DNA of 36,533 bases, taken from the UHGV virus genome UHGV-0135234. One strand, given 5' to 3'. The notes below the pieces were generated by a model. That model was given only the letters and a program-made list of their open reading frames with translations. It was not told the DNA's origin and ran no database searches. The position numbers were made by a program, and so were the translations under genes. The DNA is from a virus. This document shows, piece after piece, positions 3,764 to 31,544 of this stretch (within the stretch, counting starts at the first letter, position 1; every line of letters starts with the position of its first letter).

Positions 3764-4348
3764 TTATTGTTTATTTTTTTCGTTCTGGTTGATGACAAAT
3801 TCAATGTAACTTTCGATCTTTGCCTTCTCTGTTTCAGGTAACAATGCGTAGCGCGAGCGGTCATAGTTGATAGTCGCGGGGTCGTGCGGGTGAATCAGTA
3901 ATTCATATCCGTGACGCCCAAATGCGGATGCAACATTCTCCAGGGTGGAAATGGAAACGCTGACCTCATTGTTTAACAGGCGGCTGATTGTTACCTGGGC
4001 GACGCCGGATGCGCGGTGAAGTTTTCCCTGCGTTGAAAGGTCGCGGCTTTCGCTCATCCAGCGTTCCAGGTTGTGAGCCGCCAGTTGACCAATGTCGCTT
4101 GGTCCGACAGGCTGAAAACCTTCCTGAGAAAGCGAGCGATCGATATCAAGCCAGTTACGGGGTTTATTGGCGGCAGCTTCAATTTTTCGCGCAACCTGGT
4201 CGCCGATAACCTTCTTGCCAAGAGCCCAGCGGTTTACCAGATTTGCCTGAGTTCCAAGTTTTTCAGCCATCCGCGTCTGAACACCATTGAATTCACGGTC
4301 GATCAAGTCGTTGAGATTTTGCCTGCGGACGTCCTGGATACTTTTCAT
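3764..4348 (-). CDS. phage immunity repressor (CI-like, two HTH domains, no S24 peptidase domain)
   Basis: 194 aa; N-terminal HTH (QTRMAEKLGTQANLVNRWALGKK) and second HTH (RASGVAQVTISRLLNNEVSVSISTLENVA); no LexA-like autocleavage domain; divergent from Cro-like gene with operators between. Confidence 0.75.
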   Translation of the reverse strand: MKSIQDVRRQNLNDLIDREFNGVQTRMAEKLGTQANLVNRWALGKKVIGDQVARKIEAAANKPRNWLDIDRSLSQEGFQPVGPSDIGQLAAHNLERWMSESRDLSTQGKLHRASGVAQVTISRLLNNEVSVSISTLENVASAFGRHGYELLIHPHDPATINYDRSRYALLPETEKAKIESYIEFVINQNEKNKQ

Positions 4349-12615: not shown

Positions 12616-12692
12616 TGGCGTGGCATGCAGGATTCGAACCTGCGACCAACCGCTTAGAAGGCGGTTGCTCTGTCCAACTGAGCTAATGCCAC
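12616..12692 (-). tRNA. tRNA-Arg (anticodon UCU)
   Basis: 77 nt GTGGCATTAGCTCAGTTGGACAGAGCAACCGCCTTCTAAGCGGTTGGTCGCAGGTTCGAATCCTGCATGCCACGCCA; 7-bp acceptor stem, D-arm GCTC/GAGC, anticodon loop CTTCTAA, T-loop TTCGAAT, encoded CCA. Confidence 0.9.
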
Positions 12693-13021: not shown

Positions 13022-13036
13022 TTACCTGAAAGGTAA
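13022..13036. promoter_or_regulatory. operator palindrome TTACC-N5-GGTAA upstream of head operon
   Basis: ttacctgaaaggtaa. Confidence 0.55.
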
Positions 13037-29114: not shown

Positions 29115-29528
29115 ATGAAGGAATTATTGCTGTTATCGGTATTTTTGATATCCGCTTGCTCGACATCCTATGATGTTTATGACGGTGTTGATAAGGCATA
29201 TTGCGACAAAGTTAAAATGGATTTTTCTCTTGCCAAGACGGCGAAGGATAGTTGTATTGATCACTACGTCAAGACTTATACCAAGCCAGCCTCATCGGCA
29301 TCTGATATTGCTGAAGGTGCTGTGTTTGAGTGTAACAAGGTGATATCCATCGCAGCGAGTTCTTCATACGATGCTGCTGTATGTGCAATGGCTGAAAGAA
29401 ACGGCATGTCAGTGCAAAAAATTAATAGCATGATAAGCAGTAATGACGAAGCCAAAATAAGAACTGATATCAGCTCGGTGAAAAAAGATGCCATGAACAG
29501 AGTTGTAAAATATCAGTCATCTTTATAA
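29115..29528 (+). CDS. lipoprotein (candidate superinfection-exclusion moron)
   Basis: 137 aa; signal peptide MKELLLLSVFLISAC with lipobox ISAC, Ser at +2; AT-rich; followed by palindrome and terminator. Confidence 0.6.
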   Translation: MKELLLLSVFLISACSTSYDVYDGVDKAYCDKVKMDFSLAKTAKDSCIDHYVKTYTKPASSASDIAEGAVFECNKVISIAASSSYDAAVCAMAERNGMSVQKINSMISSNDEAKIRTDISSVKKDAMNRVVKYQSSL

Positions 29529-29544: not shown

Positions 29545-29568
29545 GGCCGCTTTCGCGGCCTTGTTTTT
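29545..29568 (+). terminator. rho-independent terminator
   Basis: ggccgc-tttc-gcggcc followed by TTGTTTTT. Confidence 0.65.
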
Positions 29569-29728
29569 AACGAATGCCACCGCCACCCGGGCGGGAATCC
29601 GCAGAACGCCCACCGCAGCGGGAGCCGTCAGCAGCAGTGTCGCTGTCGTGCTGACAACGACCGGCAAAGGCCTGAGTTGAAGCTACCAGAGACAACAAAA
29701 CGAACAGTGCAGCAAATGCTTTTTTCAT
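29567..29728 (-). CDS. small secreted peptide (Sec signal peptide, 2 Cys, Gly-rich C-terminus)
   Basis: ORF 29567..29800; ATG at 29728 gives 53 aa MKKAFAALFVLLSLVASTQAFA|GRCQHDSDTAADGSRCGGRSADSRPGGGGIR; weak SD. Confidence 0.35.
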   Translation of the reverse strand: MKKAFAALFVLLSLVASTQAFAGRCQHDSDTAADGSRCGGRSADSRPGGGGIR

Positions 29729-29800: not shown

Positions 29801-29821
29801 AAAAAAGCCCGCAGCGCGGGC
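29801..29821 (-). terminator. rho-independent terminator after cargo gene B
   Basis: Minus strand gcccgc-gct-gcgggc followed by TTTTTT. Confidence 0.6.
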
Positions 29822-30261
29822 TATTCTTCTTCATCATTAAAAAGCGGATTGTTGTTTCCATCTGATGAAAGGAAAGGTATGTGTTCTCTTGAAAATCCAA
29901 CAATGACAATTTCATTATCATTTTTTGCATAATGAATGCATTCATTAGAATGCCTTCCGCCAGGGTTGAAATTTAAGTTAATGGTATAATTCTTAAATGT
30001 GTTTGGATACCATGTTGGCCCACAATGATAATGCCAATAATTCTCTTGCTCATAATTGTCTGAGCCGGGAATTTTATCATGGTTATCATCAACCCACGAG
30101 GGCTTGTTTTTTCCAACAAGCGCCCTTCCATTGGCAACATCCTCTAAAAAACTTTGTATGATTTTTATTTCATCATCAGTAAGGAAAGGTCCGTCTACAG
30201 CGAAAGGGGTGTTGCTTTCCCCATGTAGAAAACTATTAGATATTCTAATGTTAAACTTCAA
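29821..30261 (-). CDS. AT-rich cargo protein of unknown function (gene B)
   Basis: ORF 29821..30402 has no internal Met; CAGGAG SD + 6 nt + TTG at 30261 gives 146 aa (MKFNIRISNSFLHGESNTPFAVDGPFLTDDEIKIIQ...NYWHYHCGPTWYP...FNDEEE); upstream 47 codons of the long ORF use rare codons and overlap gene A. Start uncertain. Confidence 0.4.
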   Translation of the reverse strand: MKFNIRISNSFLHGESNTPFAVDGPFLTDDEIKIIQSFLEDVANGRALVGKNKPSWVDDNHDKIPGSDNYEQENYWHYHCGPTWYPNTFKNYTINLNFNPGGRHSNECIHYAKNDNEIVIVGFSREHIPFLSSDGNNNPLFNDEEE

Positions 30262-30281
30262 GGAAAACTCCTGATGTGCTT

Positions 30282-30449
30282 CTATTTGGAGCGAAATGCC
30301 GCCTTGAAGTCGCTGAAAGATGTTCCTGTCTGGTAAACCATATCCTTGTCGCGCTCTTTGCTTGCGCGGCCAAGCATAACTTTTCCAATGACATCCCAGC
30401 ATTGCTTGGCTTGTTCATTGTGCTGAGTACGATTTTTCAACGCTGTCAT
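30282..30449 (-). CDS. small protein (gene A), first gene of operator-controlled cargo operon
   Basis: 55 aa MTALKNRTQHNEQAKQCWDVIGKVMLGRASKERDKDMVYQTGTSFSDFKAAFRSK; AGGAGG SD 6 nt before ATG; host-like codon usage; not in ORF track (<60 aa). Confidence 0.4.
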   Translation of the reverse strand: MTALKNRTQHNEQAKQCWDVIGKVMLGRASKERDKDMVYQTGTSFSDFKAAFRSK

Positions 30450-30461
30450 ATCGCGCCTCCT

Positions 30462-30476
30462 TTACCTTTAAGGTAA
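30462..30476. promoter_or_regulatory. operator palindrome TTACC-N5-GGTAA between promoter and gene A
   Basis: ttacctttaaggtaa immediately upstream of SD. Confidence 0.55.
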
Positions 30477-30504
30477 TAGTACGCTATTCACCCACAGTCT
30501 GCAA
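30476..30504 (-). promoter_or_regulatory. putative promoter of cargo operon
   Basis: Minus strand -35 TTGCAG (30499..30504), 17 bp, -10 TACTAT (30476..30481), then operator. Confidence 0.45.
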
Positions 30505-30548: not shown

Positions 30549-31235
30549 TCAGAAGAACCCAGCCTTGTCGTTGATGTACTCCGCGTGGGTCTGGATATCA
30601 CGCAGGCATTTGCTCACACCAACAATGTAGCAGAACATGGTGGTCAGCTCCGCCGCCGCGCCCGATACGTCGTGCCCGTCTTCCTGTAACTGGTTCAGCA
30701 GATTCATCAGCAGTGAGTTCTCCGTCAGGCCGAGAACACCAGACGGAGAATGAATCAGGCTGCGGTAGCCGGGCTTCAGTGGGGCACTGTAGGTTTTGTT
30801 CTCTATCTTCATTGCCTGCATCACTGCTGATGCTGTGGCGTTGGCTACCTGGTCGGCAACTATCTTTATGCGTTCTTCCTGCGGGAGCGAGTTTTTAATG
30901 TAACTTCCGGTGCGGCGGATCTGAGGAAGAACCTCACCTGTAACCCATTTACGAAAGCGGTAGGGGATAGTGCCTGGTGTCACTGCGTCGCGGCAGCGGA
31001 GGATCAGTGTGTAGAGGCCTGACTCGTTGATAATATTGGTTTCACCTTGACGGCCTAAGTTAAATTTAGCCCTTTCATCATCATCAAGAGATTTTATTGA
31101 CATAGTGGGGTTTGTCAGTTGAAGAGCTTTAATAACGTCTTTGGCAACAAACCAAGGATTTCCATCAATAACAATGGCTCGAATGGTGGCTTCTGATTCA
31201 AAATGAAAAACAGATGGGGTTACGTTAGCAGTCAT
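30549..31235 (-). CDS. Bro-N domain antirepressor-like protein
   Basis: ORF 30549..31388; ATG at 31235 (MTANVTPSVFHFESEATIRAIVIDGNPWFVAKDVIKALQL... classic Bro-N N-terminus); AAGGTGA SD; upstream extension is a structured leader. Confidence 0.8.
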   Translation of the reverse strand: MTANVTPSVFHFESEATIRAIVIDGNPWFVAKDVIKALQLTNPTMSIKSLDDDERAKFNLGRQGETNIINESGLYTLILRCRDAVTPGTIPYRFRKWVTGEVLPQIRRTGSYIKNSLPQEERIKIVADQVANATASAVMQAMKIENKTYSAPLKPGYRSLIHSPSGVLGLTENSLLMNLLNQLQEDGHDVSGAAAELTTMFCYIVGVSKCLRDIQTHAEYINDKAGFF

Positions 31236-31388
31236 AGTGATCACCTTTGTAGTTAGGTTAATCACCACTACCGACGCCAATCGGTTGGTGGTGAACTGTG
31301 CAGGGTTGGCGTAACCGGCTACAAAGGACCCGGCGCACCTTTCGGTGCCCCCACACAGCCCACCATAGAATAGGTGCGCTTTACACAT

Positions 31389-31408
31389 AAAAAAACCGCT
31401 TATGCGGC
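31389..31408 (-). terminator. intrinsic terminator/attenuator in Bro leader
   Basis: Minus strand gccgc-ataa-gcggu followed by seven U. Confidence 0.45.
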
Positions 31409-31501
31409 ATATGTGCCTCTGTAGTAACCCGGGACGCCAATCCCGGCACTGGATTTTGCCAGTGCCCGATTACTATGGCACAAGAGGAGTGCGATGTAAA
31501 T

Positions 31502-31516
31502 TTACCGAAAAGGTAA
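31502..31516. promoter_or_regulatory. operator palindrome TTACC-N5-GGTAA
   Basis: ttaccgaaaaggtaa directly downstream of putative Bro promoter. Confidence 0.55.
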
Positions 31517-31544
31517 TAATAAACACTCTACTTGGTAATTGCAA
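31516..31544 (-). promoter_or_regulatory. putative promoter for Bro-N gene
   Basis: Minus strand -35 TTGCAA (31539..31544), 17 bp, -10 TATTAT (31516..31521); same architecture as gene A promoter. Confidence 0.4.

Follow-up and report, generated by a model that had tools for sequence, protein, structure and literature searches.

A two-gene unit in a Uetakevirus prophage

The sequence analysed here is a stretch of 36,533 nucleotides (nt) from the viral genome UHGV-0135234, referred to in its entirety as the window. Our subject is a compact unit on its minus strand (29,821–30,504), in which a promoter with an overlapping dyad (P_AB) precedes two short genes, A and B, and a terminator (coordinates in Table 1). 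A first-pass annotation, made from the letters alone, had described this unit as an insulated cargo module of a small gene followed by a larger one, located where P22-like phages carry immI and sieA. Our analysis supports the modular layout; the P22-like setting is not borne out, as sequence comparison identifies the window as an Escherichia coli prophage of the Uetakevirus type, similar to phiV10 and epsilon15. The cassette region is 97.7–99.1% identical to that of phages HEMP4 and phiv142-3.

Gene A can be read directly from the sequence as a 55-codon frame with an ATG behind an AGGAGG Shine–Dalgarno motif, and gene B as a 146-codon frame that begins with TTG behind a CAGGAG motif and contains no methionine codon. 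B is AT-rich, as had been noted, with a GC content of 35.6% overall and 30.6% at third codon positions (GC3); the corresponding values are 47.0% and 53.6% in A, and the window as a whole has 49.1% GC. All four arginine codons of A are CGY, and all four of B are AGR (AGA/AGG). The gap between the two genes measures 20 nt rather than the 17 nt originally given, and in about 30 other loci the corresponding genes lie 0–31 nt apart or overlap. With co-directional genes, the small partner first, one promoter upstream and one terminator downstream, the pair has the adjacency of a type II toxin–antitoxin (TA) system and is predicted to form an operon.

Reading frame and family of gene B

The frame of B is open upstream to an ATG at 30402, which would give a 193-residue protein. 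In other genera, B homologues have their start where the TTG lies in the window, and in Serratia and Pectobacterium in-frame stops lie 2–5 codons 5′ of this codon; on these grounds, the longer open reading frame (ORF) was ruled out. Among nine enterobacterial loci, B starts with TTG in seven, with GTG in one and with ATG in one. As judged from these homologues, TTG is the real start of B.

B matches the unnamed family phrog_5954 from end to end. Its close relatives form 34 clusters in a collection of 5.8 billion proteins, in Enterobacterales and Pasteurellaceae, and an exhaustive profile search of 1.84 billion representatives retrieved 118 relatives. Across 99 of them, H77, H79, and H127 are invariant and G50, N52, K53, Y78, H110, Y111, and F130 are nearly so; the conserved His/Lys motif set consists of GKNKPSW, WHYHCG, IHY, and S..H.PF. 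Of 5426 complete E. coli genomes, 77 contain the cassette; those listed as best matches are largely chicken isolates. Among the E. coli records listed, both proteins carry the RefSeq label 'hypothetical'. Profiles A1 and A2 gave spurious matches only when compared with PDB sequences (a repeated cytochrome, a His tag).

A predicted RelE/ParE fold and its relation to YafO

The structural model of B is confident over its whole length (predicted local distance difference test score (pLDDT) 91.9) and describes a compact alpha/beta protein with an antiparallel sheet packed on N-terminal helices, which is the arrangement that defines the RelE/ParE fold. The structural neighbours of the model, given here with the figures from the comparison, include RelE (1wmi_C, 7.9), HP0894 (7.7), YafQ (7.4), HigB (5.1–6.9), YoeB (6.8), ParE (4.7–5.9), and BrnT (4.6). 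On the strength of this model, B very probably has the RelE/ParE fold. In the topology of the model, one strand carries H77 and H79 and the following strand H110 and Y111, with H127 immediately behind the last strand; this would place the conserved histidine and tyrosine residues on the catalytic face of the RNase members of the superfamily. Profile searches and structure prediction yielded no named sequence family for A or B, and the RelE/ParE fold for B. The earlier statement that neither protein belongs to a known family holds for both at the level of sequence and fails for the fold of B, which matches a well-characterised family at the superfamily (fold) level only.

The same slot of the sister phage TL-2011b contains a 59-residue gene together with gp44, a member of the YafO family (PF13957, E 8e-6, 26.3 bits, above the cut-off). 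YafO is a RelE-related, translation-dependent mRNA interferase (PMC2814082). We compared the B family with a YafO alignment comprising the E. coli K-12 and TL-2011b proteins and six plasmid genes, to which three more sequences were later added. With hhalign, the two families align over 95 columns (score 25.1, P 0.0014, probability 17.5%) and present their motifs in a like order (GrNKpS~fGrDa, WHYH~HiHl, TS..VIHY~TsD..LVY, and S..H~p.aH, B family first); one of 190 column shuffles reached the same score. More direct comparisons give nothing comparable. The Pfam model YafO_toxin (PF13957) matches neither B nor any of the 99 family members at E up to 1, NCBIfam likewise gives no match, BLASTP of B against TL-2011b gp44 returns E 1.5, and comparison of hidden Markov models (HMMs) with sequences gives about 0 bits for B and YafO. 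Among viral contigs, K-12 YafO has no relatives and gp44 has close relatives only. By the family's own cut-off, B is not a YafO family member; YafO is nonetheless the nearest sequence family to B, and homology between them is only suggestive.

Gene A as the constant partner of B

Either A or an A-like C-terminal domain lies directly 5′ of B in every locus examined, covering Enterobacterales, Pasteurellaceae, Neisseriaceae, and Aeromonas. A is a protein of 55–64 residues in Serratia, Pectobacterium, Erwinia, Proteus, Enterobacter, Kluyvera, Pantoea, and Klebsiella aerogenes; it corresponds to the C-terminus of a 102-residue protein in a Klebsiella lambdoid prophage, to sequence within a 71-residue Aeromonas protein, and to the last ~45 residues of 160–210-residue proteins in Pasteurellaceae and Neisseriaceae (loci L016–L031). 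In Erwinia, A and B stand alone as an island of two genes, flanked by accA and a gene of the IF-2B family. Two loci combine an intact A-like partner with a B homologue that has a premature stop or is truncated (L020, Canicola haemoglobinophilus; L031, a metagenome-assembled genome of Neisseria), as expected if the toxin is the costly gene of the pair.

Searched alone, A retrieves few relatives. It matches the unnamed family phrog_8607 and no Pfam, NCBIfam, or PADLOC model, and the A-type partners of B contain no Pfam domain. The AlphaFold model of A consists of a long helix (residues 2–31), a linker and a short helix (45–53), with a pLDDT of 72.9 and a predicted template modelling score of 0.36. 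Fold comparison returns generic coiled-coil matches only, and the model contains no DNA-binding fold of the ribbon-helix-helix, helix-turn-helix, Phd/YefM, or AbrB type. To judge from this model, A would look like a toxin-wrapping neutralising domain.

The long Pasteurellaceae and Neisseriaceae partners are helical proteins with an N-terminal hydrophobic segment, and their resemblance to A is confined to the last ~45 residues. We considered whether those from Pasteurellaceae are akin to the ~170-residue partners of plasmid YafO genes, which are also hydrophobic at the N-terminus, and rejected this relation (hhalign P 0.2). No similarity to the A profile was detected in TL-2011b gp45. In the nin region of Klebsiella lambdoid prophages (L005–L007, 3391–4486), the module comprises three genes, which encode a 95-residue protein, the 102-residue protein with the A-like C-terminus, and B; a copy of the P_AB dyad (TTACC-N5-GGTAA) stands upstream of them despite the different phage type.

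The cassette promoter carries an operator found across the phage

The hexamers and 17-nt spacing of P_AB are as first described, and the promoter is a weak match to the consensus, agreeing at 7 of 12 positions and escaping our consensus scan. We retain it because its geometry is conserved in the Kluyvera (TTGCAG-17-TAATAT) and Enterobacter (TTGACG-17-CAAAAT) loci. P_AB also shares its design with two other promoters of the phage, the PL-like and the antirepressor promoter, in that the dyad starts at the last base of the −10 hexamer. Across the Serratia, Pectobacterium, Enterobacter, and Kluyvera loci, the arms of the dyad are invariant and its centre is variable.

The window contains the exact motif TTACC-N5-GGTAA 10 times, where 0.01 occurrences would be expected by chance, together with two copies that carry one mismatch. 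Most copies extend to ATTACC..GGTAAT, and two pairs are spaced 62 bp apart. The dyad is therefore far beyond chance and, by the same count, not specific to the A–B module. Copies fall between the gene for a 194-residue helix-turn-helix repressor and a divergent cro-like gene, at the PL-like promoter, and at the promoter of the antirepressor operon, among other sites (Table 1). The 194-residue protein is 100% identical to ORF21 of ZX5 and to the phiV10 repressor, and overexpression of ZX5 ORF21 blocks lytic growth (PMC9782041). Phage phiV10, which has neither cassette nor socket (the fixed borders described below), still carries the dyad 5′ of its Bro-N gene, in a position matching the antirepressor promoter of the window.

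Taken together, the dyads look like the scattered operator regulon of the 194-residue repressor, and their placement indicates that this protein probably controls P_AB. Given the dyads in the repressor/cro region and a repressor identical to that of ZX5, P_AB would be repressed by the prophage repressor through predicted binding and would fire on derepression or fresh infection. The unit had been credited with an operator of its own; the recurrence of the same dyad in the repressor/cro region and at the PL-like and antirepressor promoters speaks against a private operator, and so does the fact that promoter–operator and terminator belong to fixed borders shared by unrelated cassettes. Autoregulation of the type II kind would involve an antitoxin with a DNA-binding domain and an operator of its own; here, the dyad is common to nine other phage sites and to unrelated cassettes, and a DNA-binding fold is absent from A. 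A–B may nonetheless bind the dyad to some extent. Host regulators (LexA, GntR, UxuR, and others) were considered as binders of the dyad; no match was found, and a host regulator was dropped in favour of the phage repressor since copies lie in the repressor/cro region.

The unit had further been described as bounded by intrinsic terminators on both sides, which holds for the downstream side, where the terminator 3′ of B is called by our scan (−14.4 kcal/mol) and is also present in most other loci examined. The upstream element, behind the Bro-N gene, is a 6-bp hairpin that is no more stable than shuffled sequences (z −0.46), is followed by TTTAAATAATT, a poor T-tract, and is not called by the terminator scan. 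It is conserved in TL-2011b, EC.W1-9, and Kluyvera. We regard it as a weak or leaky terminator, with read-through from the antirepressor operon possible.

A fixed socket with interchangeable cassettes

Junction alignments of three phages delimit the borders of the cassette. The window and TL-2011b agree almost base for base from the end of the Bro-N gene across hairpin and promoter to the GGTAAA of the dyad. In EC.W1-9, hairpin and dyad are retained and the promoter region is different. All three share the terminator (GCCCGC-N3-GCGGGC-T6) and the sequence downstream of it. Everything between dyad and terminator differs. The window, HEMP4, and phiv142-3 contain the A–B cassette in this position, TL-2011b contains the 59-residue gene and the YafO-family toxin, and EC.W1-9 (L045, 1781–2582) and ZX5 (L047, 155–956) contain a 108-residue gene that overlaps a gene for a predicted membrane protein of 167 residues (DUF2335). 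No cassette is present in phiV10. The unit of promoter, dyad, A, B, and terminator also occurs in Kluyvera, in a P22-like immI region, and in Enterobacter, next to lambdoid tail-fibre genes. As read from these alignments, the socket consists of a constant promoter–operator and terminator with an exchangeable two-gene cargo between them.

A published virulence mutant maps to gene B

An E. coli mutant that bears on B has already been described. Li et al (2020) deleted 'orf10' in the prophage phiv142-3 of avian pathogenic E. coli (PMC7724020). Orf10 of phiv142-3 (QGF19616.1) is the 52-residue ORF annotated in GenBank, which lies out of frame inside B; B itself is unannotated there. The two 60-nt recombination arms match window positions 30132–30191 and 29913–29972 exactly, and by their position the published mutant lacks codons 44–96 of B, including GKNKPSW and WHYHCG. 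The mutant grows normally in lysogeny broth (LB), yields less in serum, where its survival is about 60%, reaches lower loads in the blood and heart of chickens, and has about 2-fold lower kps capsule transcripts (PMC7724020). Since the annotated ORF lies within B in another frame, the effects reported for serum resistance and colonisation would be due to loss of the RelE-like protein B. The viability of a strain deleted for the core of B is as expected for loss of a toxin.

The orf10 transcript is raised in chicken serum relative to LB by a log2 value of 4.12 (17-fold), which places it among the top three genes with orf41 (4.56) and orf40 (3.68) (PMC7724020). By gene order, orf41 and orf40 appear to correspond to the genes that open the rightward early operon adjacent to the repressor. 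Co-induction of the B region with immediate-early genes fits control by the repressor.

Comparison with known systems

The A–B pair resembles the RelE/ParE type II systems (RelE, YoeB, YafQ, HigB) in several respects: a small gene precedes the putative toxin gene as in relBE, the genes are close and co-directional with their own terminator, and the pair is found both on mobile elements and as stand-alone chromosomal islands. It differs from them in that B is about 55 residues longer, with extra elements that include an N-terminal strand and helix, and has a His/Lys-rich conserved set (GKNKPSW, WHYHCG, IHY, and H127), whereas that of RelE is Lys/Arg/Tyr. Also unlike these systems, B matches no sequence model, A has no DNA-binding domain, and P_AB carries an operator of the phage-repressor type.

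YafN, the partner of YafO, is a Phd/YefM-type antitoxin. The YafNO system is similar to A–B in its long toxin (132–181 residues in YafO, 146 in B), in the succession of its motifs (FGRD~GKNK, an H-x-H on a strand in HIHL~WHYH, TSD..LVY~S.E.IHY, and a histidine after the last strand), and in the YafO-family pair that occupies the identical socket of TL-2011b. The partners, however, are unrelated: TL-2011b gp45 and the ~170-residue plasmid partners resemble neither A nor the long A-like proteins.

Prophage genes under repressor control offer a third comparison. Known examples are kil of lambda, which is expressed under PL, and the C1-controlled operons of P1, including the immI operon c4-icd-ant. 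As in these regulons, one repressor-type dyad stands at many promoters of the window, including that of an antirepressor operon with C4-like and isrK-like RNAs, and a potentially growth-inhibiting gene lies behind a repressor-type operator. In contrast to them, the gene here belongs to a toxin/partner cassette of two genes, which is exchanged while the borders stay fixed. As far as tested by a Pfam scan, the operator and the 194-residue double helix-turn-helix repressor are unrelated to those of P1 C1 and lambda CI.

A proposed repressor-gated toxin–antitoxin-like cassette

It seems fairly likely that A and B are a toxin/neutraliser pair. On balance, and with some reserve, we favour the view that A–B is a type II TA-like cassette that serves as interchangeable cargo in a repressor-gated socket of a Uetakevirus E. 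coli prophage. The first-pass annotation had left a choice among TA, abortive-infection (Abi), and exclusion functions. The TA reading stands up best, given the RelE/ParE fold of B, its constant partner, the conserved weak TTG start, and the YafO pair in a sister phage; the repressor-type regulation argues against a constitutive Abi or exclusion function that protects the lysogen. Whether B acts as a ribosome-dependent mRNase is more evenly balanced: its predicted fold and its nearest relatives make this activity about as likely as not.

Several observations weigh against the favoured view. Canonical RelE toxins are about 55 residues shorter than B and have a different set of conserved residues, that of B being His-rich. 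Foldseek returns the same families as the structural comparison with poor E-values (0.2–1). No Pfam, NCBIfam, or PADLOC model matches B, and none that is relevant matches any of the 99 family members in Pfam or NCBIfam. The YafO link is weak, with HH probabilities of 4–17%, and the larger YafO alignment gives a score of 20.6 (P 0.0094). A has no recognisable antitoxin fold, and repression in the lysogen fits awkwardly with a labile-antitoxin model. The capsule and serum phenotype is not that of a classical TA system, and the extent of the complementing fragment is unstated in PMC7724020. Finally, orf9, which corresponds to gene A, is absent from the published list of genes raised in serum (PMC7724020 Table S1), where a simple bicistronic model predicts otherwise. 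The discrepancy between orf9 and orf10 might stem from unequal stability of the mRNA, from counting without strand specificity across an AT-rich region, or from an internal start.

The mutant phenotypes could also mean that B is a host-modulating conversion factor, perhaps a RelE-fold protein that cuts RNA selectively or binds RNA or ribosomes, and that would adjust the expression of host genes, for example those of the K1 capsule, and increase serum resistance, with A as its chaperone or regulator. Loss of the B core does lower serum survival, blood and heart loads, and kps transcripts with no growth defect in LB (PMC7724020), and the predominance of chicken isolates among the best matches listed for the 77 genomes points the same way. 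We nevertheless consider this account unlikely, since all structural neighbours of B are growth-arresting toxins and since a harmful protein is in keeping with the weak start of B, with its obligatory partner, and with the occurrence of toxin pseudogenes next to an intact partner. The phenotypes are, moreover, modest and could be indirect, through altered prophage induction, and the authors credited them to the out-of-frame 52-residue ORF, which makes the complementation hard to interpret.

Slightly less probable again is a classical self-regulated TA or Abi module that is active in the lysogen and protects it against other phages, with A or an A–B complex binding the dyad as an operator of its own. 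In its favour, dyad and promoter overlap, as they do in autoregulated type II systems, the dyad is kept 5′ of A even in lambdoid contexts (Enterobacter, Klebsiella), one source labels the Erwinia A homologue 'Transcriptional regulator', and B transcripts are detectable in the lysogen. What argues against it is the wider distribution of the dyad, which is found 10 times in the window, including the repressor/cro region, is kept upstream of the Bro-N gene in phiV10, where A–B is lacking, and precedes unrelated YafO-type and DUF2335-type cassettes; the missing DNA-binding fold of A and the lack of a PADLOC defence match add to this.

A non-nuclease role for B, as a ParE-like DNA gyrase poison or another such member of the superfamily, is improbable. 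By topology, the invariant histidines are predicted to occupy strand positions and the C-terminal end of the last strand, like the catalytic sets of the YoeB, YafQ, and HigB type, and the sole family with a sequence hint, YafO, is a translation-dependent mRNA interferase. It is very improbable that there are not two genes here and that the region is a frameshifted pseudogene, as the first-pass annotation had allowed, or encodes instead the 52-residue orf10 or the 193-residue ATG-initiated ORF: the frame of B is indeed open to ATG 30402 and GenBank annotates only the 52-residue ORF inside B in phiv142-3, yet A and B each belong to families conserved across genera at their own lengths, the frame is closed by stops 2–5 codons before the TTG in Serratia and Pectobacterium, the whole of B is modelled with confidence, and orf10 is out of frame with the conserved protein.

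For the repressor-gated TA-like cassette, the following course of events can be proposed. In the lysogen, the 194-residue repressor would sit on the dyad, at about −7 to +8, and keep P_AB low. Derepression, whether by induction or by infection of a repressor-free cell, would give a bicistronic A–B mRNA, and the weak upstream hairpin may also let transcripts of the antirepressor operon through. A would be well translated, with its AGGAGG motif, ATG start, and common CGY arginine codons, and B poorly, with its TTG start and rare AGA/AGG arginine codons, such that A is in excess. A, largely helical and without a DNA-binding domain, would bind and mask B. Free B, like RelE, YoeB, YafQ, HigB, and YafO, would cut mRNA on the ribosome and slow translation. 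The pay-off is the least certain step: it may lie in damping or timing translation during prophage derepression, which could cut losses by lysis in serum, or it may aid stress tolerance. Damped translation at derepression would fit the lower serum yield and survival of the lysogen deleted for the B core.

A broader proposal is more speculative, and we put it forward as a tentative one. Uetakevirus prophages may possess a repressor-gated socket into which alternative two-gene cassettes are swapped, two of them with RelE-superfamily toxins. The toxins would be deployed at derepression or fresh infection, not in the resting lysogen, and would hold translation back in a manner that shapes induction, lysis timing, or survival of the derepressed cell; B would found a His-rich 'WHYH' family of ribosome-dependent mRNases whose partner is a toxin-binding domain only. 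If true, a repressor-gated toxin socket would also explain the serum-fitness effect of 'orf10' in avian pathogenic E. coli. The repressor wiring and the constant socket would point to toxin deployment at derepression rather than to self-regulated, lysogen-protective addiction, and they offer a tractable system. B would represent a previously unannotated sequence family in the RelE/ParE superfamily, and A a new partner family. The record of phiv142-3 can be corrected in that its virulence-associated 'orf10' is an out-of-frame ORF inside B.

Other features of the window

The features discussed above are listed in Table 1 together with those of the surrounding region and with the remaining copies of the dyad.

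Table 1. Cassette elements, dyad copies and neighbouring features, in window coordinates
Feature	Position	Strand	Details
P_AB promoter	−35 30504–30499; −10 30481–30476	minus	TTGCAG, 17-nt spacer, TACTAT; read from sequence
Cassette operator dyad	30476–30462		TTACCTTAAAGGTAA; perfect, TTACC-N5-GGTAA; from last base of −10 to about +8
Gene A, putative antitoxin	30449–30282	minus	55 aa; ATG; AGGAGG at 30461–30456, 6 nt before ATG
Gene B, putative toxin	30261–29821	minus	146 aa; TTG; CAGGAG at 30273–30268, 6 nt before TTG
Orf10 of phiv142-3	29973–30131	minus	52-aa ORF, out of frame inside B
Intrinsic terminator	29822–29799 (stem 29822–29806)	minus	GCCCGC-GCT-GCGGGC + TTTTTTG; scan call; −14.4 kcal/mol
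Upstream hairpin	30540–30525	minus	GGCACA-GGGA-TGTGCC, after Bro-N gene; 6 bp, −10.1 kcal/mol
Bro-N antirepressor-type gene	30549–31205	minus	Pfam Bro-N E 8e-20
C4 antisense RNA	31284–31370	minus	Rfam 79.5 bits
isrK RNA	31389–31465	minus	Rfam 74.7 bits
Prophage repressor gene	3764–4348	minus	194 aa, helix-turn-helix; Pfam HTH_3 E 1e-9
Dyad	3630		PL-like promoter TTGACA-16-TAATCA/TTACC
Dyad	3692		62 bp from 3630, just downstream of repressor gene
Dyad	4404 (one-mismatch copy 4452)		Between repressor gene and divergent cro-like gene
Dyads	6735 and 6797		Upstream of DUF1064 gene
Dyad	9846 (one-mismatch copy 9864)		Before small terminase gene
Dyad	13022		Adjoins TTGACA; upstream of tRNA-Arg
Dyad	30462		P_AB, cassette promoter
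Dyad	31502–31516		Antirepressor-operon promoter TTGCAA-17-TATTAT/TACC; isrK, C4 RNAs and Bro-N gene downstream
Dyad	31882		Upstream of 91-aa gene
Signal-peptide protein gene	29567–29728	minus	53 aa; phrog_14503 'membrane associated protein'
Lipoprotein-like ORF	29115–29528	plus	137 aa; lipobox LISAC; phrog_8691
tRNA-Arg	12616–12692	minus	Anticodon TCT

Within the cassette, Rfam returns nothing above threshold, a Trp-leader match (E 0.14) being attributable to chance, and no PADLOC defence model matches A, B, or two neighbouring small proteins. Upstream of the socket, the C4 and isrK RNAs lie between a dyad-bearing promoter (31516–31544) and the Bro-N gene, an arrangement that corresponds to a P1 immI-like antirepressor control cassette, here in a Uetakevirus. 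The constant right-hand neighbour of the socket in all sister phages is the gene for the 53-residue protein with a signal peptide, which has a promoter-like sequence of its own (TTGACG-N17-TATAGA). The 137-residue lipoprotein-like ORF follows directly after the gene for an 824-residue virion or ejection protein and varies among the sister phages; it is a candidate superinfection-exclusion gene, for which Pfam gives insignificant hints only. Elsewhere in the window, the tRNA-Arg gene lies downstream of the dyad at 13022, and AGA codons are numerous in the AT-rich tailspike gene.

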